A DNA stretch of 64,000 nucleotides. Source: Escherichia phage UE-S1. Below are positions 12,695 through 47,771 of this stretch, one piece after another (the stretch's first letter is position 1; the number at the start of each line of letters is the position of its first letter). The stretch is from the sequence record ON568341.1, one strand, 5' to 3'. The position numbers and the translations under genes were made by a program. The notes beneath the pieces are model-generated. The model saw only the letters and a program-made list of their open reading frames with translations, was not told where the DNA came from and made no database searches.

Positions 12695-12740
12695 TGTGAA
12701 CATATTAAATCTTTATGATATAATGTTCACATCTTTTTTT
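12695..12740 (+). promoter_or_regulatory. hairpin plus T-run with embedded TGATATAAT extended -10 element
   Basis: TGTGAACAT...ATGTTCACA inverted repeat, TGATATAAT in the loop, T7 run downstream; terminator/promoter composite. Confidence 0.4.
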
Positions 12741-12756
12741 GATAATGGAGATATAG

Positions 12757-13143
12757 ATGAATACAAGTTCAATCCTAAAAGCAATTGGTGGTGTTTTACT
12801 TATTGAAGTGAAAGGTGAACCAAAACTGTGCTGTTTGGAAGATATGAAGAATACAAAACACTTCAGTACTGGTCAGATTTTTAATGCCATTCGTGTTCTA
12901 AATGATAAATCAATCGCTGATTATGGTAAAGTTTGGCCTGTATATCAAAACGCAGATGGTGATATCAGTTCTGACTGGAAAACCATTGAAGCAGTCCGAC
13001 AAAGTTGTGATAGCGACTGGGACTTCATTGTAGAAGTATGTGACCAACTTCAAGAAGATGTACCAGAAATTGTGGAACGAAAGGAAGTTCTGGCAAATCT
13101 AGAAAAGTTCCGTCATGGAACACTACCATATGATACAATCTAA
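12757..13143 (+). CDS. hypothetical protein
   Basis: 128 aa ORF, GGAG RBS. Confidence 0.55.
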   Translation: MNTSSILKAIGGVLLIEVKGEPKLCCLEDMKNTKHFSTGQIFNAIRVLNDKSIADYGKVWPVYQNADGDISSDWKTIEAVRQSCDSDWDFIVEVCDQLQEDVPEIVERKEVLANLEKFRHGTLPYDTI

Positions 13144-13193
13144 TCTACTTATTAAAAAATAGCTAGTTAACATTATATAAAAAGGAATTTAAA

Positions 13194-13499
13194 ATGGAAG
13201 ATAATGGAATGAAATTTGATATGTTTGAGGGTGTACCTGAGTTTGATTTTAACAAACTAGAAAATGGTGAAGAGTCAGAACTCGTTAGTGTTACACTTAA
13301 AGCAGATTCTAAAAAGAAATATTCATCAACGGTACGTTCACGTTCACAAGAAGAATATGAATCTTTCATTGAGAGTATTCATTATGAAACATTATATCAT
13401 AAAGATGGAACTCCATATGAAGTACGTGTAACAGTACTGAAGCCTGAAGTGAATCCAATGGAAAATCTACGTCCTGTTTACTGCTGGGCAAGTCACTAA
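13194..13499 (+). CDS. hypothetical protein
   Basis: 101 aa ORF, AAGGA RBS. Confidence 0.55.
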   Translation: MEDNGMKFDMFEGVPEFDFNKLENGEESELVSVTLKADSKKKYSSTVRSRSQEEYESFIESIHYETLYHKDGTPYEVRVTVLKPEVNPMENLRPVYCWASH

Positions 13500-13507
13500 T
13501 AAACCAA

Positions 13508-13536
13508 TGGACGGGATTTCATATCTCGTCCTTTTT
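13508..13536 (+). terminator. rho-independent terminator candidate
   Basis: Hairpin GGACGGGATTTCATATCTCGTCC followed by TTTTTT. Confidence 0.5.
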
Positions 13537-13550
13537 TATATGGAGATTTT

Positions 13551-14405
13551 ATGAAACTTTATCTAATAGTTGACTATAATAAGGATTATGCTGGTAACTT
13601 CACCGAAGATTCGGATGGATATTGCACATCGACTAATGTCAATGTACGTAGCAGTAGTGCTCATGAACATGAATCTTGTAAAAATCTAAAAGATTTTATC
13701 ACATACCGAGCATTTGAAAAGAACTTCTGCCGCAGTAGATATTCTAAGTTTGAGTACCCATTAATTGATGTTCCTGATGAATTGATGTTCCAGCTAATGT
13801 TAACTGGAGTTCAAGATTATGATTATATTGCTTATAATCACATAACAAAGAAGATTTACATTGGAACATCAGTACACGATACTTCCATGTATGCATCATG
13901 CCCAGATGATCGAATGAAGCATAGAAATTCATACTATAGTGGATCAGTTGGTTCAAATAATTCATCAAATAAAAATTCATTCTTTGAGTACGTGTATGAT
14001 TACCATCACGAGAAAAAAGAACGTGAAGATTACTGTATAGAGATTGATAGTACTAATGGATATGAAGACGTAAAAGAAGCTCTTATGCCATACATTATAG
14101 AAAAATACTACAAAGATTTTCAGTACTGTAGTAATTTTCTAATCAGAAATTCTATTCAAATCGGTCGTCAATCCACTGCATACGCTATGTACTACAGTGA
14201 TTCTCCAGTTGTAGCAGGAAATGAAAGGGGTGATATCCTACCAATTCCACGTGAAGATATGACATTCATTTTTACATCTTTTATTGAGGATGATGAATTG
14301 TACGTTAAAAATAAGCATCGTTTCATGCCAAGTAAAATTGAGATTATTAGAAGCATCAGTGTTGATATATTAACCAATTTTACTGAAAAAACTGAATATA
14401 ACTGA
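13551..14405 (+). CDS. family-1-related protein with C-terminal extension
   Basis: 284 aa; GGAG RBS; VPDELMFQLML motif in N-terminal third. Confidence 0.6.
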   Translation: MKLYLIVDYNKDYAGNFTEDSDGYCTSTNVNVRSSSAHEHESCKNLKDFITYRAFEKNFCRSRYSKFEYPLIDVPDELMFQLMLTGVQDYDYIAYNHITKKIYIGTSVHDTSMYASCPDDRMKHRNSYYSGSVGSNNSSNKNSFFEYVYDYHHEKKEREDYCIEIDSTNGYEDVKEALMPYIIEKYYKDFQYCSNFLIRNSIQIGRQSTAYAMYYSDSPVVAGNERGDILPIPREDMTFIFTSFIEDDELYVKNKHRFMPSKIEIIRSISVDILTNFTEKTEYN

Positions 14406-14422
14406 GACAAAATAGAAGTTAA

Positions 14423-14463
14423 TGATATAATGTGAGGTGACAGTATATACTGTCACCTTTTTT
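14423..14463 (+). promoter_or_regulatory. TGATATAAT element followed by terminator hairpin
   Basis: TGATATAAT at 14423-14431; hairpin GGTGACAGTATATACTGTCACC plus T6. Confidence 0.45.
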
Positions 14464-14469
14464 AATCCT

Positions 14470-15136
14470 GAAAGGTTCCTATAAGGAAATGATTAAAAGC
14501 CTAATCCACTCGAAAATGTAGAGGGTAGATGAGTAGTCCTTTCAGTACGAACAGCAGAAGAAACCCGTCAGATGTGGGCATAGTTTGAACCCCTCACGGC
14601 AATGCGGCTCAGAAGAAACCCGTCAGATGTGGGCATAGTTTGAACCCCTCACGGCAATGCGGCTGTATAAAGAACTCCAATAGGATAAAGAGAGTTCCTC
14701 GATAGACATATAAGGATCGCACCTTACCAATTATCTAAGGGAGATTTCATAAGAAATATGCGGTCGGAATTATACAATATAGTTGCGTCCAAATTTTGTG
14801 AAATCAAATACAAGTACTGGTCATATGGTATTTGTATTATGTGTCGGGATGTTTAAGACCGACGACCGTTGCTACAAGAACCGCGATAGAGAGAAACAGA
14901 GCAACCCGCTTTCGTCTCGTAAGAGAATTCGTGATATGAACTATGTGAAGGCCACCAGCGTCAAACTTTTTTGTTCTTTCCCCTGCGGGGGGATGAAATA
15001 TGCTCAAGCAAACCTCGTCAATATTAATTAAAAGACTTTATAATACTTGTAGAATTGTACATGCACCGCATGGAGAATTCTACTGATGTTGATGTAATCA
15101 ACATCACGTATATTCATTGATGTTTCCATAGGAATA
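14470..15136. other. GC-elevated non-coding island, candidate structured RNA or cis element
   Basis: About 0.7 kb without a credible RBS-led ORF; visibly higher GC than flanks; several short hairpins (CCCCTGCGGGGGG; GATGTTGA..TCAACATC). Confidence 0.3.
14555..14664. repeat. perfect 55-bp direct tandem repeat, 2 copies
   Basis: CAGAAGAAACCCGTCAGATGTGGGCATAGTTTGAACCCCTCACGGCAATGCGGCT at 14555-14609 and again at 14610-14664. Confidence 0.9.
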
Positions 15137-15682
15137 ATGATGGCATTTATTAAAAAAGAAAAAACTATTACTTATAAAACTTTGAATTTTGATGATTGTA
15201 TTAATCAATCACAGGACGAAAATATTTTTACTGGATATGTGGTTATTAAAGAAAAAGGATGCATTTCTTATATAAAGGAATTGCAAAATGGCATTGAAGT
15301 CACTTCAGTTAAATTACTTCCTACACAAAAACCAACAATATCAAAAGCCCAGTACGGTAATTATTTCGAGGAAAGATACAGTAATAATTTAATAAGTGTT
15401 AAAGCTCATATTGTAAAAGGAGAACTAGAAGGAGAATATAGAAAATTCAACCCACAAGGAAAATGTGTTTGGGTTAAATACTACAATTCAGGTGTTGACA
15501 TAACATCTGAAATTATTGAGTTTTTAGGATTGACATGTACACCTGAAACTCTTCATGACTACAAATTTAATACTGAAGAAGAGTTTAATCTGATGATGCG
15601 TTATGGATCACATTTTAAATTTTTATATGAATATAACGTTGACAGTAGTATTTTTGATAAAATAGTACATAATTGTCTATAA
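15137..15682 (+). CDS. hypothetical protein
   Basis: 181 aa ORF. Confidence 0.55.
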   Translation: MMAFIKKEKTITYKTLNFDDCINQSQDENIFTGYVVIKEKGCISYIKELQNGIEVTSVKLLPTQKPTISKAQYGNYFEERYSNNLISVKAHIVKGELEGEYRKFNPQGKCVWVKYYNSGVDITSEIIEFLGLTCTPETLHDYKFNTEEEFNLMMRYGSHFKFLYEYNVDSSIFDKIVHNCL

Positions 15683-15698
15683 CAAAAGGATTTATATA

Positions 15699-16220
15699 AT
15701 GTCGAAGAAGGATACTTCGAATAAACATTCAGTACATTTCAGTACTGGAAAAGATAACTGGACAACCCCAAAAGATTTTTTTGAAGATTTAGATGAGTTA
15801 TGGGGATTTACACTTGATGCTGCTTGTGTAGATGAGACTGCATTGTGTGATAATTTTTTCACTCCAGAAGATGATTCACTGTCACAGGATTGGGGAAATA
15901 ATATAGTTTGGTTGAATCCACCATATAGTGACTTAAAAACATGGTTATCTAAAGCTGTAGATGCATATAATAACGGAGCAACTGTAGTTATTCTTGTACC
16001 CTCAAGAACCGATACAATTGCTTTTCAGGATTATGCTGCTAAAATATGTGATTGTATTTGTTTTATTAAGGGAAGATTGCGATTTGGTATACCAGAAGAA
16101 CCCGATAAGAAAACTGATTCAGCACCATTTCCTTCGTGTCTGATAGTTCTGGATAAGTACTTAACCACTGCTAAAATCAATTGTCTTAAATCTCTCGGAT
16201 TGGTGATGAAGAATTTATGA
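15699..16220 (+). CDS. DNA N6-adenine methyltransferase, phage Dam-like
   Basis: NPPY motif (VWLNPPYS) and N-terminal FTLDAACVD region, as recalled for the phage N6-adenine MTase family. Confidence 0.7.
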   Translation: MSKKDTSNKHSVHFSTGKDNWTTPKDFFEDLDELWGFTLDAACVDETALCDNFFTPEDDSLSQDWGNNIVWLNPPYSDLKTWLSKAVDAYNNGATVVILVPSRTDTIAFQDYAAKICDCICFIKGRLRFGIPEEPDKKTDSAPFPSCLIVLDKYLTTAKINCLKSLGLVMKNL

Positions 16221-16750
16221 AAGAAACATGTATATTATCATTTATGAGATGTAACCCAGTCCACAATGGACATGGTTTAGTTTTTGAAAAGGCCAAAACA
16301 TTACAAGAACAGTACAATGCTGATTTAAAAATTTATCTAAGCACTAGTACTGACAATATAAAAAACCCACTACCACCTGAACTAAAAATGTATTATACAG
16401 AGGGATTCTATCCTTCAGTGCAAGAGAACATCTACACAGAGGACAATCTATTTGATATAATGAGAGAACTGGATGGAAAGTACTTAGATGTTCTCTTCAT
16501 ATGTGGTTCTGACCGTATTGATTCTTTTCAGAAAACCCTTGACACTTACAATGGGAAGTTGTATAATTTTTGTAATATAAAAGTAATTCAAGCAGGTATT
16601 GACCGCCAATCAAGTCGATATAGCTCAACACAAATGCGTAAGTTTGCCAAAAATGAAGATTTTGATAGTTTTCGTGAGTTTTTGCCTGGAAATGACGAGA
16701 ACTTAAAAATTCAATTATTTGAAGATGTTATAAAATACATGAGGAAATAA
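16217..16750 (+). CDS. cytidylyltransferase-fold nucleotidyltransferase, NMNAT-like
   Basis: HxGH motif (NPVHNGH) near N-terminus and SSTQMRK (ISSTxxR-like) near C-terminus; ATGA overlap with upstream. Confidence 0.6.
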   Translation: MKETCILSFMRCNPVHNGHGLVFEKAKTLQEQYNADLKIYLSTSTDNIKNPLPPELKMYYTEGFYPSVQENIYTEDNLFDIMRELDGKYLDVLFICGSDRIDSFQKTLDTYNGKLYNFCNIKVIQAGIDRQSSRYSSTQMRKFAKNEDFDSFREFLPGNDENLKIQLFEDVIKYMRK

Positions 16751-16752
16751 TT

Positions 16753-17046
16753 ATGTCAGTACTGTTCAAAACTAATCCAGTACTTTGGGAACAAAATGAA
16801 CAATCAGGATTTCGTTCCATCCATGTTGAATACAAAGGTAATACAGTAGTTGCAATTATTGCTAACAAAACTCTAGGAAAATGGACCGCACAGGTTGTTC
16901 CTATGGGCTATTCTTATACATCTGATGAGGTTCAATTTTTAGCTGAACTTTATCGTCAAGTTCCTTTTATTATTAATGTGTTAGAAGGCAATGATACATT
17001 ATCACATGAAGATGTGATTGATTTTCTTGGAAACTTACATGTGTGA
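16753..17046 (+). CDS. hypothetical protein
   Basis: 97 aa ORF 2 nt after upstream stop. Confidence 0.5.
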   Translation: MSVLFKTNPVLWEQNEQSGFRSIHVEYKGNTVVAIIANKTLGKWTAQVVPMGYSYTSDEVQFLAELYRQVPFIINVLEGNDTLSHEDVIDFLGNLHV

Positions 17047-17326
17047 TGAAATAAATCTTACAGGATATTTTTTACAAGAATCTATGATTAAATTTAGTGA
17101 ACATTTCCCAGTACTGGATGGTATCGAAATGTGGCATGTCAAACCACTGTTCCACACTTTCAGTAAAGAGCACAAAATGTTATTGACTGAGGCGAGTAAA
17201 TCAAATAACATATGTGAAATCAAAATTGGTGTAAATGTCTATAAAGGGATGGTTATCTTTTTTGACAATAACAGCAACTACTTTTATATTGTTAAGGAGC
17301 ATTACGTTGACAAATACAAATACTAA
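17018..17326 (+). CDS. hypothetical protein
   Basis: 102 aa ORF. Confidence 0.5.
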   Translation: MIFLETYMCDEINLTGYFLQESMIKFSEHFPVLDGIEMWHVKPLFHTFSKEHKMLLTEASKSNNICEIKIGVNVYKGMVIFFDNNSNYFYIVKEHYVDKYKY

Positions 17327-17915: not shown

Positions 17916-17920
17916 TATAT

Positions 17921-17948
17921 AGCCCGACATAAGTTCGGGCTATTTTTG
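17921..17948 (+). terminator. rho-independent terminator candidate
   Basis: Hairpin AGCCCGA-CATAAGT-TCGGGCT followed by ATTTTTG. Confidence 0.55.
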
Positions 17949-17959
17949 TAAGGGGATAT

Positions 17960-18235: not shown

Positions 18236-18498
18236 ATTATAAAGATTTCCAATTAACATATAAGATTATTCGCAATCTAGCACACAACAATGATAGCCCT
18301 AGTCTAGAAGACACATGCACAGAAATGATCCATACGATTCGTGCAAAGATTGAAGAAAATTTCAGTACTGTTATTATTAATGATGACCATGCAGAATTTT
18401 CTGATATAATCATTAGACGTGATGGTAAAGTTGAGGTTCAGTACTACACTGATTTTGGATTTACAAGTGTACCGTTGGAGATATTCCCTTGGGATTAA
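18232..18498 (+). CDS. family-2 small paralog
   Basis: Track ORF 18208..18498; ATG at 18232 overlaps upstream stop; MNYKDFQLTYKII. Confidence 0.6.
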   Translation: MNYKDFQLTYKIIRNLAHNNDSPSLEDTCTEMIHTIRAKIEENFSTVIINDDHAEFSDIIIRRDGKVEVQYYTDFGFTSVPLEIFPWD

Positions 18499-18800: not shown

Positions 18801-18810
18801 GAGGTTACAT

Positions 18811-20278: not shown

Positions 20279-20543
20279 AGTACTTATTGCTGAAACAATG
20301 AAGATGATTTACAATATCACGTCAGCACAGAATATGCCCTATCCAACTAAGTCTTTATTGAGGACTGTGTATCTGGGGATAGTACAGGAGTACTACAAAT
20401 CCAAGCACCTAAGCATTATTAGTGTTTATCGTGATTATGAAAGGATTCGTATTTTATTCTGGAACAAGAATCGAGTACGTTCTGAATGTGACCTAGTGGA
20501 CTTTAAATTAGAGAATCTTTATTGCTATAAACAGGGACAATAG
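20265..20543 (+). CDS. family-2-like small protein
   Basis: Track ORF 20247..20543 (GTG); ATG at 20265 with AAGGA RBS. Confidence 0.5.
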   Translation: MRTNEVLIAETMKMIYNITSAQNMPYPTKSLLRTVYLGIVQEYYKSKHLSIISVYRDYERIRILFWNKNRVRSECDLVDFKLENLYCYKQGQ

Positions 20544-20601
20544 TTTAATTCATGATATAATAATGGGTAAGGAACAATAATTAACACAAGGAGTGTGTGA
20601 A

Positions 20602-21330
20602 ATGCTTGACCGTATCCGTTTCGCTACAGAGATGGCGAATGAATTAAACATGGCAAATTTCCAAATGTTAACATCAGTAATGGCTGAACATGCATGTGCT
20701 TATTCTGTAAGTGGTGTGCAGTGTGGTCAGGAGAATATGTTAGCAGATGTTTATAGTGAAGTGCAAAGTAAGCAATATAGTGTAAAGACATATAAGGATA
20801 AGTTTGTTAGTCTTTATATGAACGAAGATATTGCCGAAGACCGTAAATTCACTGATTTTATTATTGAACGCCGAGTATCAGGTGTATCTAATCCTAATGC
20901 ATCAAGCGAGGAAGTTTTTGCAGAAGTACTGAAAGATATATACGAAAATGAATTAAAAAGTAAGAATCATTACAATGTACGTGAAACTAACACAGTGCTC
21001 TTGGGATATGATGAAGACGAAGAATACTATTATTTTCGTATGACTGAAGTTCCTTTTGAATACAAATCTCCATATACAACTACAGTGAAAGAATTTACTG
21101 AAAAAAGTAAAAACTTCATGAAGCATGAAGGAAATCGTTGTAGTATAAATGGTTATGACGAAAATGGCATTCACATTTATGAATGGGTTCACCCAAATTG
21201 TCAGACATACACTCGTTGCTTGAAAAAACGTTATAATTTAGAAGAGCATGAATCATTCTATTTTAAAGTTAAGAAGCAAGGTTATACTCGCCCCGCCGAT
21301 TCTGAATTGATGGGTATGATATATTTCTAA
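20602..21330 (+). CDS. hypothetical protein
   Basis: Track ORF 20593 (GTG); ATG at 20602 preceded by AAGGAG; 243 aa; TGATATAAT element upstream. Confidence 0.6.
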   Translation: MLDRIRFATEMANELNMANFQMLTSVMAEHACAYSVSGVQCGQENMLADVYSEVQSKQYSVKTYKDKFVSLYMNEDIAEDRKFTDFIIERRVSGVSNPNASSEEVFAEVLKDIYENELKSKNHYNVRETNTVLLGYDEDEEYYYFRMTEVPFEYKSPYTTTVKEFTEKSKNFMKHEGNRCSINGYDENGIHIYEWVHPNCQTYTRCLKKRYNLEEHESFYFKVKKQGYTRPADSELMGMIYF

Positions 21331-23506: not shown

Positions 23507-24645
23507 CCCTTTTGCAAATATATGAAGATTTAATGCACTTATGTAATACAAACGATGCATTCTTTTATGTGGATCATAAAAGTCCTGCTGGTGGCACGTA
23601 TCGTGTATTCAGTTATCGCCTAGCATCATACAATGATTTCATGCAACCAAATGCACTAGAAACCCGTGGCTCTATGTGGGAAATTGATGAAGAAGGTAAT
23701 ATGATTCGTTGTGCTGCTCGTACTATGAAAAAGTTCTTCAATGCTTACGAGAATCCTGCTACAATGTTCCCTGCTAACACCACATGCGATGACATTGCGG
23801 TAGTGATGCCTAAATTAGATGGTTCAGTGATCAGTACTTACCGTGATAATGATGGTGAGATTCGTTGTAAATCACATACTGCATTGTATTCTGACCATGC
23901 GATTAACAGTACTCGACTTATTAACGAAAACCAGAATTTGTATCAGTACATCGACGAAGCTGAACGTTTAGGTTACACAGTTAATATGGAGTATACAAGC
24001 CCAGAGTACCGAATTGTATTACCATATCAGGTAGAACAACTGTTTGTATTGAACGTTCGTCATCGTGTGAGTGGTGAGTTGCTATGTGGTAAAGCACTAC
24101 GTGATAAGTTTCCATGTCTTGCACAGTACAGCACTAACATGACAGGCCAAGATATTCATCACACTTTTCCTGTACGAAATACATTCCGTGAAAGTGTTGA
24201 TGAAGTTCATAAAATGCTTGATATTGAGGGGTTTGTGTGCATCTTAAATAATGGGACAATGTGTAAAATAAAGACTGACTGGTACAGTTCATTACATCTT
24301 ACAAAAGATAGTATTATTATTGATTCTCATTTATATGAAGCTGTATTAAATGGTTCAAGTGATGATTTAAAACAATTGTTCAGTACTGATGAATATGCTA
24401 TGCAAAAGATATTAAGAATGGAACAGTTGGTTTTTTCGTGCTATAATGCATTACAAGATGAAGTAGAAAGCTTCGTCAATGAACACAAGCACTTAGAGCG
24501 AAAGGAATTCGCATTGAAGGTTCAGTCGTGTTTATCTAGTGAACTGAATCGTCAGGGCTTGGCATTTGCAATGTATAATAATAAGAAAGTTGATTATAAA
24601 GATACTCTTATCAAATACATGAAAATTATACTAAAAGATTTTTAG
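23503..24645 (+). CDS. rnlA: RNA ligase 1 (T4 RnlA-like)
   Basis: 380 aa; N-terminal region and KLDG adenylation motif align by eye with recalled T4 Rnl1 (FFY.D..S..G.TYR.FSY..ASY.D...P.ALE.RG.MF). Confidence 0.85.
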   Translation: MTLLQIYEDLMHLCNTNDAFFYVDHKSPAGGTYRVFSYRLASYNDFMQPNALETRGSMWEIDEEGNMIRCAARTMKKFFNAYENPATMFPANTTCDDIAVVMPKLDGSVISTYRDNDGEIRCKSHTALYSDHAINSTRLINENQNLYQYIDEAERLGYTVNMEYTSPEYRIVLPYQVEQLFVLNVRHRVSGELLCGKALRDKFPCLAQYSTNMTGQDIHHTFPVRNTFRESVDEVHKMLDIEGFVCILNNGTMCKIKTDWYSSLHLTKDSIIIDSHLYEAVLNGSSDDLKQLFSTDEYAMQKILRMEQLVFSCYNALQDEVESFVNEHKHLERKEFALKVQSCLSSELNRQGLAFAMYNNKKVDYKDTLIKYMKIILKDF

Positions 24646-27999: not shown

Positions 28000-28305
28000 A
28001 TGGATATACAAACATTCAATAAACTAAAGTACTATGATAATGGTTTTGTATTAATAATTAACGAACTTGATAGTATACCATACGAATATCATAATCAAGT
28101 AATGAATATAGTAAAAAATATATGTGAAGAACTAAAAAGTATATTTAAAAATGAATATGTTTATGATTTAGGTAATAATAGAACAAAACTATACATAAAG
28201 AAATTCTGGGGAACACATTGTGGTTTGATGGTCGATTTGGGTTTAAGTTTAGACAATAATTTCGAATCATGTTCATTATATTTGGACGAAATGAGAATCT
28301 CATGA
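28000..28305 (+). CDS. family-2-like small protein
   Basis: 101 aa ORF immediately after upstream stop. Confidence 0.5.
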   Translation: MDIQTFNKLKYYDNGFVLIINELDSIPYEYHNQVMNIVKNICEELKSIFKNEYVYDLGNNRTKLYIKKFWGTHCGLMVDLGLSLDNNFESCSLYLDEMRIS

Positions 28306-28362
28306 GACATAAGGACATTCGGTGATATAATTTGATTATATCATTAATAAGGAGAGGTTGAA

Positions 28363-28689
28363 GTGAATGGGTCGTTTTTAGAAATACTAGAAAAGACAAC
28401 TGGGATGCTTTCAAGTTCACTAATGCACATTTTCAGTACTAGTAATTTTTACGATTCGCGTGTGTTAGATGTAATTTGTAATAGCTATGTTGAATGTGTG
28501 TCTAATACAATATGTCCATTTAACGCTTATTCAAATGATGGTGTTGAAAAGTTTATTATATCCAAGATTCAATGTGGTTTTGGTGATTGGATAGTTCTAT
28601 GTGAACGTAGTGGTGTGTCTTTATACATCGAAGAAATTGGAAAATTTATATACAAAGGAGTAGAATATGTTAGTCCCAATTATTATTAG
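28363..28689 (+). CDS. hypothetical protein
   Basis: 108 aa; GTG start after AAGGAGAGG; TGATATAAT palindrome upstream. Confidence 0.5.
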   Translation: MNGSFLEILEKTTGMLSSSLMHIFSTSNFYDSRVLDVICNSYVECVSNTICPFNAYSNDGVEKFIISKIQCGFGDWIVLCERSGVSLYIEEIGKFIYKGVEYVSPNYY

Positions 28690-37102: not shown

Positions 37103-37131
37103 TTGGACATTTTAAATCTTAGTGATATAAT
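37103..37131 (+). promoter_or_regulatory. sigma70-like promoter candidate
   Basis: TTGGAC, 17-nt spacer, TATAAT with TG extension (TGATATAAT); 35 nt upstream of the ClpP-like gene. Confidence 0.45.
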
Positions 37132-37165: not shown

Positions 37166-37861
37166 ATGGTTGAACAATTCAATTTTGGTGGTTATGCTAA
37201 TGGTGAAGTAAGTAACATTTCTATTCCGTATGTAGTTGAAAAAGTTAATGGTTCAGAGCGTACATATGATCTAGCATCTCGTATGATGCAAGACCGTATC
37301 ATTTTCCTTGATACTGATTTCAATGACCAGATGGCACATATCATCAAACAACAATTGGTGTGGTTAGACTCACAAGGTGATTCCCCTATTACATTCTATA
37401 TTAGTTCACCAGGTGGTTCAGTACATGCAGGTTTGGGCATCGCTGATATTGCTAAATCTTGTGTATCACCAATCCGTACTGTAGTAATGGGTTATGCAGC
37501 ATCAATGGGGTGTTATACACAATCTGTTATTGGGACTAAAGGCTTCCGTTTGGGTGGTAAACGTTCCTACTTCATGTGTCACCAAGTAAGTTCTGGTACG
37601 AAAGGTCTAATTACTGACCAGAAAATTTCACTTAAACATTCTGATGAACTGAACACGTTGCTGACGAAAGAAATCGCTGAAGCTGTTGGTGTTTCTCATG
37701 AACAACTACTGAAAGATGCAGACCGTGATTTGTGGTTGAATGCTGAAGAAGCACTCGAATATGGTGAAAAAGGATTTATCGATGGTATTATCCTTGGACC
37801 ACGCAACGAGAAAGGTCAATACCTAGTCAAGCGTCGTGGTGGTGTTGAAGAGTGGGTGTGA
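37166..37861 (+). CDS. ClpP-like serine peptidase
   Basis: 231 aa; SSPGGSV, catalytic-Ser box GYAASMG, His box MCHQ, Asp region DADRDLW..AEEALEYG. Confidence 0.85.
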   Translation: MVEQFNFGGYANGEVSNISIPYVVEKVNGSERTYDLASRMMQDRIIFLDTDFNDQMAHIIKQQLVWLDSQGDSPITFYISSPGGSVHAGLGIADIAKSCVSPIRTVVMGYAASMGCYTQSVIGTKGFRLGGKRSYFMCHQVSSGTKGLITDQKISLKHSDELNTLLTKEIAEAVGVSHEQLLKDADRDLWLNAEEALEYGEKGFIDGIILGPRNEKGQYLVKRRGGVEEWV

Positions 37862-40281: not shown

Positions 40282-42183
40282 TTACGCACTGATTGTTACA
40301 GTTGCAGTATCTGTTTTATTACCATCAGCAGTAGCCACTGTAATGACTACAGAACCTTCTTCTAGAGCAGTTACTAATCCCTCATCACTAATAGATACTT
40401 TAGTAGGTTCATCTGCACTATAAGTTACTGATTTGTTAGTTGCGTTAGATGGAAGAACTTCTGGAACTAGTTGAACTGTTTTAGTACCTGATAGTGAAAG
40501 TTCAGTAGTTTTAGGTGTTAAACTAACACTGGATACAGGAACTGGAATATTAACAGTAATAACACCTTGACCTGTTTTACCACTTCCATCAGCAGCAGTT
40601 GCGATAATGTTTGCAGTACCATTAGTTAGTGCAGTTACAATACCAGTACTAGCATCAACTTTTGCTACAGCAGGTTCACTAGAAGACCATGTTACAGATT
40701 TATTAGTTGCGTTAGATGGAAGAACTTCAGCAGCCATTGCTTGAGTTGCTTTAACAGCAGTCAATGTTTTAGTTGCTGGAGTAACATTAATAGATGCTAC
40801 AGGAACTGGAATATTAACAGTTACCACGCAAACTTTAGTAAATCCACCATCAGATGTGGTTGCTGTAATATTTGCAGTACCGTTTGCAACAGCAGTGATT
40901 AACCCAGTTGGACTTACCGTTGCGACACCCTCAGCAGAAGTAGTGTATGAAATATCTTTACGACGAGCGTTATCTGGAATAACAGATGCAGTTAATTGTT
41001 GAGTAGCACCTACCGAAGTTAGGGTTGCGGTCAACGGAGTCATATTAATACCAGTTACTGGGATCGTTACATCAATCACTGATTCAGCAGTTTTAGCACC
41101 ATCATCAGTGGTAACAGTAATAGTTGTAGTACCGTTATCAACCGAAGTTACTAGACCAGTATTACTAACTTTTGCTACGTCTGGATATGAAGAAACATAT
41201 GAAACTGCTTTATTGGATGCAGTTGCAGGAGCAACGGTTGTTTCTAATTGTTTAGTATCACCTAATGTTGAGAATGTATAAGTACTAGGAGTCATAGTGA
41301 CACCAGATACCGGTGTTTTCACAGTGATAGTAGTAGTATCAGTTTTAGCACCATCTTCGGTTGTTGCTGTAATCACCACTGTACCGTTAGCAACACCAGT
41401 TACTAGACCAGAAGTAGGGTTAACGGTTGCTACATCAGGTGTTGCTGAAGACCATGTAACGTTTTTATTAGTTGCATCATCAGGAGATACTGTAGCCGTT
41501 AATTGTTGAGTACCGCCAACGTTAATTGTTGCAGTTTTAGGAGAAACAATAACACCACTAACTGGAGTTGTTACGGTAAATGCACAAACATCGGTGAAAC
41601 CACCATCATGAGTAGTAACTGTTACATTTGCATTACCATTAGCACGGGCAATTGCTAAACCAGTTTCAGCATCAACTTCAACTATTGTTGGAGCAGAGGA
41701 ACTATAACTTACTGTTTTATCATTTGCATAATCTGGATCAATTGTAGCTGATAGCTGTTGTGTACTACCAACTTTAAGTGCTACAACTTTAGGTGAAATA
41801 ATAACACCATCAACTGGAGTAGTATAATCACGTTTAACCACACGACCATTGTTCAATTTAATAATACGACCCATATAAAGAGTAGTATATCCCTTACTAA
41901 TCCCATCATCTACATAAATCATGAATGAATTGTCTTGAACCATATTAATTGCGTCTACTGGTTTAACGGAATTTGGAATGTCGATACCACGGGTATCATA
42001 CCAACACATGGAAACTTTGTAATAGATATCACCATTATCATTTATGAGATCATAAACGTTACTGGAACGTTGACGGTTAATATATAAAGTTTCGGTTAAC
42101 ACCTTACCATCGATTTTAGCGACAGAAACTTTAATACCACCAATACCAAATGGCAATTTACCTTCACTAGATATTGCTTTCAT
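40282..42183 (-). CDS. Ig-like (Big_2) repeat protein, putative virion decoration or adhesin
   Basis: 633 aa on minus strand; about 120 aa N-terminal domain followed by about six tandem repeats (VSPKTATINVGGTQQLTATVSPDDATNK..W.S....VATV); TATAAATA motif upstream. Confidence 0.65.
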   Translation of the reverse strand: MKAISSEGKLPFGIGGIKVSVAKIDGKVLTETLYINRQRSSNVYDLINDNGDIYYKVSMCWYDTRGIDIPNSVKPVDAINMVQDNSFMIYVDDGISKGYTTLYMGRIIKLNNGRVVKRDYTTPVDGVIISPKVVALKVGSTQQLSATIDPDYANDKTVSYSSSAPTIVEVDAETGLAIARANGNANVTVTTHDGGFTDVCAFTVTTPVSGVIVSPKTATINVGGTQQLTATVSPDDATNKNVTWSSATPDVATVNPTSGLVTGVANGTVVITATTEDGAKTDTTTITVKTPVSGVTMTPSTYTFSTLGDTKQLETTVAPATASNKAVSYVSSYPDVAKVSNTGLVTSVDNGTTTITVTTDDGAKTAESVIDVTIPVTGINMTPLTATLTSVGATQQLTASVIPDNARRKDISYTTSAEGVATVSPTGLITAVANGTANITATTSDGGFTKVCVVTVNIPVPVASINVTPATKTLTAVKATQAMAAEVLPSNATNKSVTWSSSEPAVAKVDASTGIVTALTNGTANIIATAADGSGKTGQGVITVNIPVPVSSVSLTPKTTELSLSGTKTVQLVPEVLPSNATNKSVTYSADEPTKVSISDEGLVTALEEGSVVITVATADGNKTDTATVTISA

Positions 42184-42219
42184 ATACTTTCCTTTATAAA
42201 TTGTATTGTATTGTTATAT

Positions 42220-42227
42220 TATTTATA
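42220..42227 (-). promoter_or_regulatory. T4-type late promoter motif TATAAATA (minus strand)
   Basis: Reverse complement reads TATAAATA about 40 nt upstream of the minus-strand ATG at 42183. Confidence 0.45.
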
Positions 42228-42493
42228 TTATAACAAAATTATTTTAGTATTAAAAAAGGAGTTCTAATGCTCCTTTAAAATATAAAGGAACATACTGTGT
42301 AAATCTGGTTTGGTCAGGTTAATCTTTCAGAGAGAAGGAAGTAGTGAATGACATTTTATCATTAAAATCATCTCCTTATCTTTAAAATGGAATTGTAAAC
42401 TGCCTCTTAATATGATACCATAGTTCAAATGGTAAATCAATGAACTTAACAAAAAAAACTTGATACTACAGTCATAATTGTTCAGTTTTGTGC

Positions 42494-42522
42494 TTGACAT
42501 AATTAATCAATTATTGTACTAT
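42494..42522 (+). promoter_or_regulatory. sigma70-like promoter candidate
   Basis: TTGACA, 17-nt spacer, TACTAT; 36 nt upstream of the 42558 start. Confidence 0.45.
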
Positions 42523-42557
42523 TAATAATGTTCCTTAACTCAAATCCGAGGTAATTA

Positions 42558-43163: not shown

Positions 43164-43231
43164 AAATAATTATAATAACAGGATGATTATGTTGTTCTTC
43201 CTTTGTTATTAACTATATCGGAAATATAACT

Positions 43232-43492
43232 ATGACAAACATCCAGAATTTGACGTCTATTATTTTTTATGCTACAGTGGTGATGTATACTATTGTACTT
43301 ATTTTAACAGTTTTTATTTACAAAGATTACAAAAAAGGCTTTATTAATAGCTCAACAATGAAGTTCAATTCTAAATTTGAAGCAATTATATTTTATGTTT
43401 TGACAACATCATATTTGTTGTGTATAATGTTATTAGGGTCATTGATTTATATTTTATATACAACATTATTTGCAATTGGAGCTATTTTATGA
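43232..43492 (+). CDS. small membrane protein
   Basis: 86 aa, three hydrophobic segments. Confidence 0.5.
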   Translation: MTNIQNLTSIIFYATVVMYTIVLILTVFIYKDYKKGFINSSTMKFNSKFEAIIFYVLTTSYLLCIMLLGSLIYILYTTLFAIGAIL

Positions 43493-44085
43493 CATGTATT
43501 ATTGCACACACTGATGGTGTAACTTCATTTATTGCAGGGGACAAGATGGGGAGTGATGGTTTTACGAAATCAATCCAAACAGAGCCTAAAGTGTTTGAGA
43601 AAGAATTTGTAAAGATTAGTGGTGATGACGGCTTGACTCGTACAAAAGATGTTATGACAATTGGATTCACTACATCATTTCGTATGGGTCAACTGCTAAC
43701 TTATAATTTAAATTTACCAGACCAAAATTCAAATGAGACGTTTCTACAGTATTTAGTACTGAAAGTTATTCCTATTATTCGTCAAATGTTTAAAGACGAA
43801 TGGGGTGCACGTGATACAACACAAGATGTTGGTGGTGGTCAATTTATTATTTTGCACAATCATAAGATTTATGAAATTCAGGAAGATTTTTCAGTTCTCC
43901 AGGCAAAATCAAGAGTTGCATCAGTTGGTAGTGGTACATATCATGCAATTGCAGCGATGCAAGCATACATTGATCTTGAGAAAGAAACTAACGTACAACT
44001 ACATGAACGTATCAAATCCATTTTCAAAATTGTCAGTGATAATGTGTCGAGTGTAAGCGAAGAGTTTGATGTATTAAAATATTAA
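43489..44085 (+). CDS. HslV-like Ntn-hydrolase peptidase (proteasome beta-type)
   Basis: Track ORF 43420; ATG at 43489 overlaps upstream stop; N-terminus MTCIIAHTDGVTSFIAGDKMGSDG matches HslV MTTIVSV..G...IAGDGQ; SVGSGTYHAIAA matches GSGG.YALAAA. Confidence 0.6.
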   Translation: MTCIIAHTDGVTSFIAGDKMGSDGFTKSIQTEPKVFEKEFVKISGDDGLTRTKDVMTIGFTTSFRMGQLLTYNLNLPDQNSNETFLQYLVLKVIPIIRQMFKDEWGARDTTQDVGGGQFIILHNHKIYEIQEDFSVLQAKSRVASVGSGTYHAIAAMQAYIDLEKETNVQLHERIKSIFKIVSDNVSSVSEEFDVLKY

Positions 44086-44100
44086 AATTATAAGAGAGAA

Positions 44101-44295
44101 ATGATGGCATACACAATTTATGAATGGATTTTGAGTTTTATTATAGTATTTTTTATGGTTGTAATTTACAATAATGCTACATGCTTATATAGAGATTTAA
44201 AATCCAATGGTTATCATGCAAACAATAATTTAATGTATGCCTATCATATTGGAATCATTCTATTATTATCAATATATTTAATTGGTTTTATATAA
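44101..44295 (+). CDS. small membrane protein
   Basis: 64 aa, two hydrophobic segments. Confidence 0.5.
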   Translation: MMAYTIYEWILSFIIVFFMVVIYNNATCLYRDLKSNGYHANNNLMYAYHIGIILLLSIYLIGFI

Positions 44296-44304
44296 GGATT
44301 GCGT

Positions 44305-45057
44305 ATGATATCAGAAAAATTTATAAGTAATGAAGGAAACAAGAGATTACTTATCATCTCAGGAGCAGGTCTTTCCGTTGAAAGTGGGATGGAGCCATTT
44401 CGATTTGATGATGGCTTATGGGATACATTTAAAATTAATGACGTATGTAATATTGCAAATTTAGATACAAAATATCATGTTGTTCATTCGTTTTATAACA
44501 CACTGCGTGTTAAACTGGGTCAATGTGAACCAAATGCAATGCATTATTTTATCAAATCCTTAGAGGATCAATATGGTGATTGTTTCCTTCATATGACCTC
44601 CAACATGGATGATCTTTATACACGTATTGGTGGTAAAGAACTCAAACTTCATGGTAATTTGTGTGAAGTGATAGAAAATTATAGTATTAATGGTGATGAT
44701 TATAACATTGTTAACTGTGGTTATGAGCCATATATACCAAAACATGATGTTTTTGCTAAACCAAATGTAGTGATGATTGGTGAATATCACCGTTACGTTG
44801 ATGGTGTTCGTTTGCCAATATACGAAGAAAGAAATAATGTTTTAAAAACACTTACCGAAAACGATACTGTGATTGTTATTGGAAGTAGCGATACAGTGCT
44901 TGTGTGGTCCAGATTAGCTGCGGCATTGCCCTGTTATAGCGTTAATGTTAACATTCGCAAAAATGATAATGATTTTCTGTTCAATGAAAAAATTATCAAA
45001 CCAGCTACCAAAGCAATACATCAATTAGAGACTATAATTAAGGAACGTATGAAATGA
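44305..45057 (+). CDS. Sir2-family NAD-dependent deacylase / ADP-ribosyltransferase
   Basis: Track ORF 44299 (TTG); ATG at 44305; ISGAGLSVESGMEPFR (GAGIS..SGIP.FR), TSNMDDL (TQNID.L), KLHGNL, VIGSS motifs. Confidence 0.75.
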   Translation: MISEKFISNEGNKRLLIISGAGLSVESGMEPFRFDDGLWDTFKINDVCNIANLDTKYHVVHSFYNTLRVKLGQCEPNAMHYFIKSLEDQYGDCFLHMTSNMDDLYTRIGGKELKLHGNLCEVIENYSINGDDYNIVNCGYEPYIPKHDVFAKPNVVMIGEYHRYVDGVRLPIYEERNNVLKTLTENDTVIVIGSSDTVLVWSRLAAALPCYSVNVNIRKNDNDFLFNEKIIKPATKAIHQLETIIKERMK

Positions 45058-45605
45058 GTGTTAAAGAAGTTCCTTTTGGTGAATATGGTTCACGTGCCAA
45101 TTTTGTATTTTGCTATTTCTTTGCAAGAAAATGTAACCCTTACGAAAATTACGAATTGAATGATATACCAGAAGTAAATTTAGTATTACTCCAATTACGA
45201 TGGGATGGCCTTCTAGGGGGATGTGGTGGGACAGTTGAAAGTACTGATATCTCACTAGAAGATGCGTTACGTCGTGAAATTCAAGAAGAGATGGATTACA
45301 ATATTTTTGTTTCCCATCTTCGACCACTTAAAACTTTTGAAATTTATCCAGGTGCAAACAGTCATAGTTTTAGCTATGAAGTAACCTATGATGAGTTGAA
45401 ACACATTAGAGATGGATACACTAATGCTAAACATGCGAGTGCTGAAGTGGCTGGTGTAAATTTATGTCATATTTCTCGTTATTCTAAGGGACAAAATCGA
45501 GAAGCGGGATATAATAATCTTATGACTCAGAACTTCATTGGTACAGCAAAACAAGAATTGGAGTATCTGGTTCAAAAAGAAAACTTACTAATTAGTTATC
45601 TATAG
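45054..45605 (+). CDS. Nudix hydrolase
   Basis: 183 aa; ATGA overlap with Sir2 gene; Nudix box GGCGGTVESTDISLEDALRREIQEEMDY. Confidence 0.7.
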   Translation: MSVKEVPFGEYGSRANFVFCYFFARKCNPYENYELNDIPEVNLVLLQLRWDGLLGGCGGTVESTDISLEDALRREIQEEMDYNIFVSHLRPLKTFEIYPGANSHSFSYEVTYDELKHIRDGYTNAKHASAEVAGVNLCHISRYSKGQNREAGYNNLMTQNFIGTAKQELEYLVQKENLLISYL

Positions 45606-45614
45606 GAGTTTAAC

Positions 45615-45935
45615 ATGTCTTACTCAATGTTTTTGGATGATATCCGTGATGCAAATCTATATTATCCAAACCAAGATATGGTGGTATGTCGTGACTTTAA
45701 AAGTGCATGTGAATATGTTATTGAAAATGGAATTCCAGCATTTGTATCATTTGACCATGACTTGGGTGATGTGAGCGAAGACGAAAAGACTGGATATTCT
45801 TTTGCTAAGTTTCTTATTGATTATATGTTTGATAATAATATTAAAGAACCGTTTGAGTACTTTGTTCACAGTAGTAATCCTGTTGGTAAAATTAATATTG
45901 AAACATACTTAAACAATGGGTTTAACGCATTATGA
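45615..45935 (+). CDS. hypothetical protein
   Basis: 106 aa; FLDD.R ... VSFDHDLGD pattern, function unknown. Confidence 0.55.
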   Translation: MSYSMFLDDIRDANLYYPNQDMVVCRDFKSACEYVIENGIPAFVSFDHDLGDVSEDEKTGYSFAKFLIDYMFDNNIKEPFEYFVHSSNPVGKINIETYLNNGFNAL

Positions 45936-46234
45936 TTCAAACACACATCAAAAGTCTTATTTGTACTATTCTGTTGGGCACGGGAGTGTTTTTGTTCGGA
46001 CAATATCACGAGAATACTAAGCGTACCAACATTCACTACAATACCGCAGAAGTTGTTAGTTTAGGGCAATGTAGTGAGTCAAAATGTTCGTTTATGTACA
46101 AAACCAGCAATGGTGAAGTACGTAATGGACTATCAAGAGAACCAGTTTCAATTGGTCAACTTGTTTACCAGGAGTGCTGGGAAGAAAAGGTTCGAGGTTC
46201 CCGTTGCTATGTTGAATACGAACCAAATATGTAA
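45932..46234 (+). CDS. hypothetical protein with N-terminal hydrophobic segment
   Basis: 100 aa; ATGA overlap. Confidence 0.5.
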   Translation: MIQTHIKSLICTILLGTGVFLFGQYHENTKRTNIHYNTAEVVSLGQCSESKCSFMYKTSNGEVRNGLSREPVSIGQLVYQECWEEKVRGSRCYVEYEPNM

Positions 46235-46294
46235 TAATCCGAGTCAATAACATTAGTCGAGTACAAGGATGTACTCATAACTCAAGGATGTTTT

Positions 46295-47734
46295 ATGAAA
46301 AAATATACAATTGACACAAACGTACTTCTATCTGACCCTAATGCATCTATTGCGTTTGATGGTGCTGCAATCATTCTACCATTTACTGTTCTAGAAGAAT
46401 TGGATTCAATTAAGAGTCGTAGTGTGGATGTTTCACGAGATGCTCGCGTTGCTATTCGTAACATTGAAGCAATTATTGCAAATGCATCTCATGATGAAAT
46501 TAGTAGTTCTGGTGTTAATATTGCTGATGTTCATACCAATATGAATCCTGACAGCAAATTGTTTGTTATTACAAACGAAGAAGCTGAAGCACTAATTCGT
46601 ACTAAAGGTTCAAACGACAAAGTTCAAACCCTTCTCAAAAGCACTGTACCTGATGATAAAATTATTCTGGTAGCTTTAGCAACCGAATCAGTACTGGTAA
46701 CTCGTGATATCAACATGCGTATCAAAGCACTAAGTTATGGTGTCGAGGTACAAGACTATCGTCATGATATTGTTATTGGTGATAGTGATTTGATTCACAT
46801 TGGTCAACATCATATGGAAATTAATTTTTGGGATGTATATAGCAATTTAACAAATACAAATATTAAAACTGAACAAATCGGTCGTCGATTGTATCATTAC
46901 ATCCCTAAAAGCTTGATTGAGCATTTGCTTCCACAAAATCTATGTATTGGTGATTATCTATATGATGATGCTGATGTATTATTTGTATACGAAGGTCAAT
47001 CAGCCATTGAGGAAGATGATGGTACACTAACACCAGAAGATATTTTGGTATTCCAAGATATTGGTCAATCAGTAGCGTTGCGTACTAAAGTATGGGATAT
47101 TAAAGCAAAGAATATTCAGCAAGCACTTGCCATCAACAGTATTCTCGATCCTGATGTACATCTAACAGTACTACTAGGTTCGGCTGGAACTGGCAAAACA
47201 TTAGTGACGATTGCTACTGCACTAGAGTTAGTACTGGAAAAACGCAAATATGACCGTGTTGTGTTCTCAAAACCACAAGATTCACAATGGGCTGAAATTG
47301 GTTTCTTACCAGGTTCCGAAATGGAAAAAATGCTACCACATTGTGGCCCTGCACTGGATGCATTAGAATTTTTACACAAAGATGATGCCTCACCACAAGG
47401 TAGTATCGAAGAGATTCTTAAACGTAACGTGATGCAATTTAAAGCACTAAACTTTGTGCGTGGACGCTCATTCACTAATACGATTCTTGTAGTTGATGAA
47501 TTCCAAAACATTACACCTGCACAAGCAAAAACTATCTTGACACGAGCAGGATTAAACTGTAAAGTAGTGATTATGGGAAACTTAGCACAGATTGATAGCA
47601 AATTTATCAGTCCAGTAAACAGTGGTTTGACATATGTAACTGAAAAATTCAAAGATTGGAGTGGTTGCCGTATCATTGAATTAGAAGGTGTTGTTCGTTC
47701 ACCACTTGCTGAATTTGCTGAAGAAAATATGTAA
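46295..47734 (+). CDS. phoH: PIN-domain / PhoH-like ATPase
   Basis: 479 aa; N-terminal PIN-like region (IDTNVLL...LEELD); P-loop GSAGTGKT; Walker B VVDEFQN. Confidence 0.85.
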   Translation: MKKYTIDTNVLLSDPNASIAFDGAAIILPFTVLEELDSIKSRSVDVSRDARVAIRNIEAIIANASHDEISSSGVNIADVHTNMNPDSKLFVITNEEAEALIRTKGSNDKVQTLLKSTVPDDKIILVALATESVLVTRDINMRIKALSYGVEVQDYRHDIVIGDSDLIHIGQHHMEINFWDVYSNLTNTNIKTEQIGRRLYHYIPKSLIEHLLPQNLCIGDYLYDDADVLFVYEGQSAIEEDDGTLTPEDILVFQDIGQSVALRTKVWDIKAKNIQQALAINSILDPDVHLTVLLGSAGTGKTLVTIATALELVLEKRKYDRVVFSKPQDSQWAEIGFLPGSEMEKMLPHCGPALDALEFLHKDDASPQGSIEEILKRNVMQFKALNFVRGRSFTNTILVVDEFQNITPAQAKTILTRAGLNCKVVIMGNLAQIDSKFISPVNSGLTYVTEKFKDWSGCRIIELEGVVRSPLAEFAEENM

Positions 47735-47739
47735 TATAG

Positions 47740-47771
47740 TATGGGACGTACTGTCCCATACATGATATAAT
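47740..47771 (+). promoter_or_regulatory. hairpin plus TGATATAAT extended -10 element
   Basis: TATGGGACGTACTGTCCCATA hairpin directly followed by TGATATAAT; upstream of the 47803 gene. Confidence 0.4.

Follow-up and report, generated by a model that had tools for sequence, protein, structure and literature searches.

A 64,000 nucleotide (nt) stretch of the Escherichia phage UE-S1 genome (ON568341.1), referred to here as the window, carries six intergenic copies of the motif TGATATAAT. We interpret these copies as the extended −10 elements of a promoter class, designated class B, which consists of a GGRACA-type box, 13 nt and TG(A/C/G)TATAAT. From the sequence comparisons described below, we put at roughly 0.7 the probability that this class is kept throughout the Rak2-like jumbo phages, fires rightward into the next unit and acts before late transcription, with the host sigma70 as its most likely reader. 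The class B promoter at 14404–14431 and its counterparts in other phages also appear, on balance, to head an undescribed family of large structured RNAs of ~0.5–0.6 kb each. Coordinates are window positions unless another genome is named.

Megablast placed the window within the genus Asteriusvirus, which belongs to the Rak2-like group and includes 121Q, PBECO4 and G17, all jumbo phages of E. coli, with identities to its relatives of ~94% over 12–22 kb and ~90% over 40–50 kb. G17 was collinear with the window, and the counterpart of the window in a further relative, EC22.5-2 (OR845138.1; 352 kb, unannotated), lay between 75.5 kb and 137.6 kb. Individual sites were aligned with G17, EC22.5-2, TH47 (~87% identity) and Turkey5 (~82%). 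The window had a G+C content of 31–36% and nearly all of its genes were on the + strand.

Motif counts and architecture of the sites

Analysis of both strands revealed 12 exact matches to TGATATAAT, compared to 3.51 ± 1.98 in dinucleotide shuffles, none of which (0/100) reached 12. Ten of the 12 copies were on the + (coding) strand and six of these ten were intergenic (12716–12724, 14423–14431, 20553–20561, 28323–28331, 37123–37131 and 47763–47771). With intergenic sequence modelled as a first-order Markov chain, 0.19 intergenic copies were expected, and the maximum in 5000 simulations was three. The preliminary description of this DNA had listed the same six sites, with positions that were right to within a few bases (its ~20560 and ~28320 are 20553–20561 and 28323–28331), and had proposed that lack of enrichment over base composition would count against a promoter role; the motif was found to be more frequent between genes than composition predicts. 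Absent from its list were the four + strand copies within open reading frames (ORFs), at 10959, 16453, 18402 and 57203, and the two − strand copies, at 13391–13399 (within an ORF) and at 28335–28343 (the mirror arm of a palindrome).

All six intergenic copies were exact extended −10 elements (TATAAT with TG one base upstream). A box ending in GAC was found upstream of all six, separated from the TG by 14 nt in five cases and by 15 nt at 47763. The boxes read TGAGAC-A, AGGGAC-A, TGAGAC-A, TTGGAC-A and TGGGAC, with GTGAAC at 12716 (GTGGAC in TH47 and Turkey5). Read in the sigma70 register, the hexamers were TGGACA, GGGACA, GAGACA and TGAACA with a 16-nt spacer, so that four to five of the six TTGACA positions were matched; the GACA was kept and the TT was systematically replaced. 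All matches to the box plus extended −10 in the window were on the + strand, and at four sites a ribosome-binding site and then a start codon followed, 32–35 nt past the −10.

A position weight matrix (PWM) trained on class B sites from outside the window-homologous region recovered six sites on the + strand of the window (10940, 14404, 20534, 24420, 28304 and 37104), none on the − strand and none in shuffled sequence. A generic sigma70 consensus scan of the window showed no enrichment (126 matches against 120.8 expected, and 105 against 104.5). The generic scan is therefore useless in such AT-rich DNA, and only the specific box together with the extended −10 discriminates. The copies of TGATATAAT within genes probably do not act as promoters, with the possible exception of the one at 10959.

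Alignment of the sites at 12716, 14423, 28323 and 47763 with the four relatives showed that the box and the −10 were constant while the spacers and flanks changed. At 20553 and 37123 the whole region was identical in the two closest relatives, the only ones that could be aligned there. At the position of the promoter preceding the ClpP gene, Turkey5 had TAGACA-N13-TGATATAAT and EJP2 had TTGACA-N13-TGGTATAAT. No promoter was found upstream of ClpP in RaK2, CBB, GAP32, 7t3 or Yen9-04, in which the genes abut with no spacer, so that positional conservation of the ClpP promoter is seen only within Asteriusvirus. The features identified are listed in Table 1.

Table 1. Predicted promoters, hairpins and associated features of the window (window coordinates), followed by the two promoter classes of EC22.5-2 (EC22.5-2 coordinates)
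Feature	Position	Strand	Description
Composite, no exact TGATATAAT	3476–3536	+	Terminator AGACCC..GGGTCT plus T-run, then TTTACA-N14-TGTTATACT; terminator annotated in G17
Composite, no exact TGATATAAT	6780–6818	+	Terminator stem ATACCAG/CTGGTAT, TTGACT in loop, T-run as spacer, extended −10 TGATACATT; terminator annotated in G17
Candidate intragenic class B promoter	10940–10967	+	TGGACG-N13-TGATATAAT inside ORF 10891–11364; 21 bits; block near-invariant in five phages, flanking codons vary; G17 annotates a gene across it
Terminator-like hairpin enclosing promoter	12695–12740	+	9-bp stem TGTGAACAT (12695–12703)/ATGTTCACA (12723–12731), 19-nt loop, T-run 12732–12740 (T7)
Class B promoter	12697–12724	+	TGAACA (TGGACA in TH47, Turkey5), 16-nt spacer, TGATATAAT at 12716–12724; start of ORF 12757–13143 is 33 nt past −10; −10 invariant and spacer variable in five phages
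Exact TGATATAAT in coding DNA, no −35-position box	13391–13399	−	
Exact TGATATAAT in coding DNA, no −35-position box	16453–16461, 18402–18410, 57203–57211	+	
Class B promoter heading non-coding RNA	14404–14431	+	GAGACA-N13-TGATATAAT; top PWM score in window, 31 bits; conserved in G17, EC22.5-2, TH47
Hairpin	14434–14465	+	11–12 bp plus T6 run, begins 3 nt past −10; terminator of upstream gene 13551–14405 or 5′ stem of the RNA; ARNOLD terminator annotated in G17
Structured non-coding RNA, ~0.58 kb (both ends putative)	14438–15021	+	Core motif 14887–14914; T-run 14967–14973; CCCCTGCGGGGGG hairpin 14980–14992; final CGTCAA 15016–15021
Class B promoter, no hairpin	20534–20561	+	GGGACA-N13-TGATATAAT; ORF 20593–21330 begins 32 nt past −10
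Candidate class B promoter, no exact TGATATAAT	24420–24447	+	GGAACA-N13-TGCTATAAT in 3′ end of RNA ligase gene, 226 nt before next gene; PWM 14.9 bits, 0 shuffle matches
Class B promoter	28304–28331	+	GAGACA-N13-TGATATAAT; ORF 28363–28689 begins 32 nt past −10; box and −10 kept, spacer variable in four phages
Palindrome	28323–28343	.	TGATATAAT-ttg-ATTATATCA; perfect 9-bp; 3′ arm not kept in relatives
Class B promoter, no hairpin	37104–37131	+	TGGACA-N13-TGATATAAT; ClpP gene 37166–37861 begins 35 nt past −10
T4-type late-promoter motif TATAAATA	42220–42227	−	36 nt before Big_2 gene (40282–42183, − strand)
8-bp hairpin	47740–47760	+	TATGGGAC/GTCCCATA; 5′ arm contains −35-position box; no T-run after it
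Class B-like promoter	47742–47771	+	TGGGAC, spacing one base longer, TGATATAAT; ORF 47803–47991 begins 32 nt past −10
T4-type late-promoter motif TATAAATA	57555–57562	+	Just past a terminator, 31 nt before ORF 57594–60293 (899 aa)
Class A (EC22.5-2)	Clusters at 30–51 kb and 318–349 kb		A-rich upstream tract, TTGACA, spacer ending AGTACTG, TATAAT, then TTTACATCAAGG and hairpin; TTGACA-N17-TATAAT without TG
Class B (EC22.5-2)	86–343 kb, including all window-homologous sites		Often an A-rich tract, then G(G/A)GACA, 13 nt with no similarity from one site to the next, TG(A/C)TATAAT (GRGACA-N13-TGMTATAAT)

Promoter classes in the genome of EC22.5-2

The genome-wide enrichment analysis that the preliminary description had suggested was carried out on the 352-kb genome of EC22.5-2, in which the motif proved to be enriched between genes and class B to be specific for spacing and strand. 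EC22.5-2 contained TGATATAAT 47 times, with 21 of the copies in the 7% of its DNA that is intergenic. The pattern GGAC-N14-TGnTAnAAT occurred 15 times, always on the + strand; with gaps of N12, N13, N15 and N16 the counts were two, one, three and zero respectively.

Listing every nnGAC-N17-TAnAAT in EC22.5-2 separated two classes, A and B (Table 1). Among the intergenic sites, the base at −34 was a purine in 15 sites with the TG and five without it, and a T in one site with the TG and 16 without it (Fisher p = 3e-5). The distinct promoter class postulated in the preliminary description is thus borne out by a box at a fixed distance, by start codons 32–35 nt downstream (four sites), by conservation where the spacers drift and by statistical separation from the TTGACA class in EC22.5-2.

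Class A of EC22.5-2 was itself a near-identical module, repeated ~15 times, made up of an A-tract, TTGACA, N8, AGTACTGTATAAT, AGTTTACATCAAGG and a GGGGAGAA..TTCTCCC hairpin. Near-identity over ~15 repeats suggests that whole cassettes of promoter and 5′ untranslated region were duplicated before small early ORFs. Within the window, two perfect 12/12 sigma70 matches without TG (TTGACA-N17-TATAAT) were observed, at 16539–16567 (in an ORF) and at 43400–43428 (at the edge of a poorly resolved gap, 43164–43419).

Hairpins at the promoters

Four of the six sites (12716, 14423, 28323 and 47763) overlapped or abutted a stem-loop, in agreement with the association noted earlier, and no hairpin was found at 20553 or 37123. 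The further proposal that terminators and promoters form composites held for two of the six sites, 12716 and 14423, where the arrangement is conserved, but not for 47763 (a conserved hairpin without a T-run), 28323 (a palindrome that is not conserved), 20553 or 37123. A G+C-containing stem with an immediate T-run, as expected of an intrinsic terminator, was present at 14434–14465 and at 12695–12740, where the loop, at 19 nt, is longer than usual; it was absent from 28323 and from 47740–47760, neither of which has a T-run.

At 12716 the 9-bp stem encloses the box, the spacer and the −10; relatives retain the stem via G.U wobble changes and the T-run is conserved. The upper-stem bases of the hairpin at 14423 differ in G17, EC22.5-2 and TH47 with pairing retained. 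At 47763, EC22.5-2 and TH47 retain the stem with different loops, and in Turkey5 a hairpin surrounds the −10 in its place, together with a TTGACA box. The palindrome at 28323 accounts for the − strand match at 28335–28343 and is probably incidental. A role for it as an operator or a bidirectional promoter was rejected, as its 3′ arm is not conserved.

The intergenic spacers are only 50–70 nt long, and the simplest account is therefore that the terminator of the previous unit and the promoter of the next are interleaved. At 12716 the promoter would sit in the loop of the terminator, and at 14423 the terminator would begin 3 nt past the −10. Transcription from a promoter embedded in this way would leave out the 5′ arm wholly or in part, and the transcripts might so escape termination, which is doubtful at 14423. 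Composites that lack the exact motif were also present at 3476–3551 and 6776–6836. They alone break a run of ~20 same-strand, back-to-back ORFs of 120–212 amino acids (aa), between 177 and 10845, all of which are hypothetical in G17.

A putative structured RNA behind the promoter at 14404–14431

Downstream of the promoter at 14404–14431 there are ~700 nt without a credible gene. The RNA stretch was ~99% identical to G17, EC22.5-2 and TH47, compared to 87–94% for the adjoining genes, and conservation extended past the internal terminator hairpin, into the CCCCTGCGGGGGG hairpin and the CGTCA motif. The window copy contains a perfect 55-nt tandem duplication (14555–14664, + strand) of a segment that occurs only once in G17, EC22.5-2 and TH47. 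A hairpin within this segment shows a compensatory change compared to relatives (GGG..CCC against UGG..CCA).

A distant blastn search returned 70 records, from phages of Escherichia, Salmonella, Erwinia, Yersinia, Serratia, Pectobacterium, Cronobacter and Xanthomonas and, weakly, of Klebsiella. Each non-Klebsiella record had four to five matching places, which were almost always unannotated. Copies of the RNA were confirmed four times in each of two Asteriusvirus genomes, all on the strand of the surrounding genes, and copies were found in most Rak2-like genera (Asteriusvirus, Mimasvirus, Eneladusvirus and Alcyoneusvirus, and relatives infecting Salmonella, Erwinia, Serratia and Xanthomonas). 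The four copies of EC22.5-2, all on the + strand, lay at ~90, 143.4, 223.2 and 333.3 kb, each behind TG(A/C)TATAAT and a GGGAC-like box. One copy in this genome begins ~60 nt past the stop codon of a sigma70-like gene.

A scan of IMG/VR with the core motif recovered 19 copies, 18 of which had exactly one TG(A/G/C)TATAAT located 295–414 nt upstream (the RNA loci are labelled L019–L037 and L041). In 17 of these 18 promoters the box read GGGACA, GAGACA, GGAACA, GGAACG, GAAACA, GGGATG or GGATCG and preceded the TG by 13 nt (by 14 nt in a single copy); the remaining one, L024, had GGGACA with a 14-nt gap. Metagenomic copies and those of Yersinia, Serratia and Cronobacter phages had GGAACA, GGAACG or GAAACA 13 nt before TGGTATAAT, and Asteriusvirus had GGGACA or GAGACA in the same register.

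RNAalifold analysis of 18 distinct copies gave a consensus of 88 pairs in 17 helices, with compensatory changes at 52 of the pairs. In this structure 95.4% of cells could pair, compared to 40–45% when the 3′ partners were slid by one to three columns, and the covariation score was 0.446 compared to 0.05–0.085 in controls; none of 500 shuffles reached the observed values. Invariant G.U pairs show that the RNA strand is the promoter strand. In the diverged RaK2 copy an otherwise invariant helix, GAGAG/CUUUC, becomes AGGGG/CCUCU. A long-range helix between GAUG (columns 113–116) and CGUC (columns 660–663) was unsupported, being invariant in the 18 copies and mismatched in RaK2.

A search of Rfam 15 with the window copy and five others, including that of RaK2, gave no match at the gathering score and only noise at E ≤ 1. 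An ARAGORN search of the RNA for transfer RNAs and transfer-messenger RNAs found nothing, and the literature searched yielded neither a description of the RNA nor any report of non-coding RNAs in Asteriusvirus.

A primer function at a replication origin, comparable to ColE1 RNA II or the T4 oriF and oriG transcripts, is a speculative possibility for this RNA. The idea derives from the pre-late promoter, the structured RNA, the conserved G-run/C-run hairpin and CGTCA just past the terminator, and the several dispersed copies per genome. The T4 origins oriF and oriG are themselves middle promoters, and their transcript serves as the primer for replication.

Reader and timing of class B

Group 2 jumbo phages encode sigma factors and have no RNA polymerase (PMC7824862). 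EC22.5-2 has, between 332205 and 333170, a gene for a sigma70-family protein of 321 aa that includes regions 2, 3 and 4 (homologue of WNN14470.1). This gene belongs to an operon preceded by a perfect TTGACA-N17-TATAAT at 327402. A pairwise alignment of this protein with E. coli RpoD, the sequence of the latter entered by hand, showed YASSS in place of YATWW, with no equivalents of W433/W434; H455 and E458, which contact the TG, were replaced by Y and V.

The absence of a phage RNA polymerase, the identity of TGnTATAAT with the host sigma70 optimum and a phage sigma without equivalents of the WW pair and of H455/E458 together make the host sigma70 holoenzyme the most likely reader of class B. 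The holoenzyme would recognise the −10 and the TG; the box, which keeps GACA and replaces TT, may reflect a region-4 contact that has been weakened or else a site to which a phage factor binds.

In EC22.5-2 a gp55-like late sigma gene (phrog_12791, E = 2.7e-154) starts 58 nt past a GGGACA-N13-TGCTATAAT class B site. The protein was borderline by phmmer with gp55 (E = 0.16) and was confirmed by PHROGs. The position of this gene directly behind a class B site indicates that class B acts before late transcription, and class B sites also precede DNA/RNA-metabolism genes. In this close relative, class B would thus drive the nucleic-acid-metabolism genes and the gp55-like gene in a pre-late phase, and class A would drive the small-ORF region that also holds the phage sigma70-like gene. 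The early or middle timing suggested in the preliminary description is compatible with these data.

Several points weigh against this interpretation. The GGRAC box replaces the TT preferred by sigma70 across the clade, which looks like selection for something other than the best sigma70 binding, and EC22.5-2 does have a sigma70-family protein of its own that includes regions 2, 3 and 4; the RpoD sequence to which it was compared was entered by hand. The promoters at 12716 and 47763 depart from the consensus, in either the box or the spacing, and score too low to pass the PWM cut-off. The gene models, and hence the intergenic fraction (5.6% of the window), are our own greedy ORF calls. If transcription starts 6–8 nt past the −10 at 14423, the transcript keeps most of the hairpin and the U-run, so that the terminator is retained and escape fails there. 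Transcription-start or expression data for any Asteriusvirus were not found in the literature searched.

The first alternative, which we regard as unlikely, is that class B is read by the phage sigma70-family factor together with the host core polymerase. The factor would be made early from its TTGACA-type promoter, its divergent region 4 would read GGRACA, and class B would be a true middle class. The 321-aa protein with its sigma70 regions, the perfect TTGACA-N17-TATAAT ahead of its operon, a −35-position box that is unlike TTGACA throughout the clade and the proposal of Iyer et al. that group 2 phages recruit the host core polymerase with their own sigmas (PMC7824862) are all in keeping with this. 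However, TGnTATAAT is the exact E. coli sigma70 optimum, and the phage factor is weakened as its reader by the replacements seen in the pairwise alignment, WW to SS (−10 melting), H455 to Y and E458 to V (TG contact). Additionally, the orthologous ClpP promoter of EJP2 combines TTGACA with TGGTATAAT, which makes the two boxes look interchangeable.

Sigma appropriation as at T4 middle promoters, in which sigma70 would read the −10 and TG, a phage activator would bind GGRACA and an anti-sigma factor would remodel region 4, seems less probable still. The architecture fits, with an excellent −10 and TG, a box at −35/−30 that is not of the sigma70 type and a location before DNA-metabolism and late sigma genes, but the box is unlike the MotA box. 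A phmmer search of all EC22.5-2 ORFs for homologues of T4 AsiA, MotA and gp33 found nothing significant, a weak test of low sensitivity in which the query sequences were entered by hand (best E = 0.4–1 for AsiA and MotA). Chance recurrence in AT-rich DNA, or functionless copies of duplicated intergenic modules, might be suggested by the low G+C content, the unenriched generic sigma70 scan and the four exact coding copies without a box, but is very improbable: chance is rejected by the shuffles and the Markov model and contradicted by the PWM scan, the sites obey strict rules of strand, spacing and position with only the box and −10 conserved, and spacers and flanks unrelated between sites exclude duplication.

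Late promoter motif

The motif TATAAATA had exactly two copies in the 64-kb window, both intergenic and correctly oriented (Table 1), and 10 of its 14 copies in EC22.5-2 were in the 7% of DNA that is intergenic. These sites conform to T4-type late promoters, the gp55-like gene being present in EC22.5-2, and TATAAATA would mark the late genes. The preliminary description had confined this motif to the fibre genes and the Big_2 gene. One of the two copies does precede the Big_2 gene and the other the 899-aa ORF, but the label of fibre for the 899-aa and 910-aa proteins was not confirmed; they are paralogues that matched phrog_3573 (function unknown) and no Pfam family.

The region between 40007 and 42756 is a − strand island that encodes a 633-aa protein with six Big_2 repeats and has its own TATAAATA. 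The island had no counterpart in EC22.5-2 (a mapping gap) and, among the relatives listed, was covered by ph0011 only. From its sequence it looks like variable cargo.

Significance

The three classes of promoter (TTGACA-type, GGRACA with extended −10, and TATAAATA) provide a map for a genus without published transcription data. The map supplies concrete sites at which polymerase switching by the phage's own sigma or a co-factor can be tested, and it improves the annotation of gene starts, operon boundaries and terminators. The RNA, if the proposal is correct, takes its place among the few large, ornate RNAs of bacteria and phages for which no function is known, and it brings with it a defined promoter, dozens of natural variants for work on structure and a tractable E. 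coli host.

Comparison with known systems

Promoters have been predicted with MEME in phage CBB. The predictions comprise 18 RpoD-like promoters with an UP element, in the part of the genome where small early ORFs lie, a further 18 termed 'divergent RpoD-like', in which TGAAACG occupies −35 and which precede DNA-synthesis genes and a gp55-like gene, a class also present in GAP32, and late promoters with ATAAATA (PMC5259590). Class B shares with the 'divergent RpoD-like' promoters of CBB and GAP32 the clade, a classic −10, a box that is not TTGACA, a position before DNA-metabolism genes and a gp55-like gene, and separation from the RpoD-like early cluster. Since the register of box and −10 is the same across genera, class B is the Asteriusvirus form of this predicted class. 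They differ in that the Asteriusvirus box is GGGACA, GAGACA or TGGACA, and the fixed 13-nt gap, the TG extension and the link to a structured RNA are not described in the text consulted, which presents a MEME prediction only. What is new relative to the predictions in the sister genera is a defined architecture, GGRACA-N13-TGNTATAAT, that is statistically separate from the TTGACA class, together with an assessment of the hairpin at each site and the structured multi-copy RNA, apparently undescribed. No promoter analysis of Asteriusvirus itself was found in the literature searched, and the 2025 Sharanji paper mentions only a phage RpoD-like sigma.

Class B has in common with E. coli sigma70 extended −10 promoters the TG-n-TATAAT, the 16-nt spacer, a hexamer that keeps GACA and placement on the same strand. 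Here, in contrast, TT is replaced by G/T plus a purine at ~20 sites per genome and across genera, which is unlike drift from the host consensus. T4 middle promoters (MotA/AsiA), whose known anatomy combines a sigma70 −10, often with TG, and another box in place of the −35, likewise precede replication genes and the late sigma gene; the MotA box, centred at −30, reads (a/t)(a/t)(a/t)TGCTTtA and has no relation to GGRACA.

Four long non-coding RNAs (lncRNAs) were identified by RNA-seq in the jumbo phage PA5oct, two of them abundant in infection at 1–5% of phage reads (PMC7318152). Homology of the UE-S1 RNA to the PA5oct lncRNAs was rejected, as the core motifs were absent from ncRNA001, 002 and 004. 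It nevertheless resembles these lncRNAs, GOLLD and ROOL in being phage-borne and several hundred nt long, and GOLLD and ROOL are heavily structured as well. The RNA described here is distinguished by having no Rfam match, be it to GOLLD, ROOL or another family, by its presence in multiple copies and by a class B promoter of its own in 18 of 19 sampled copies.

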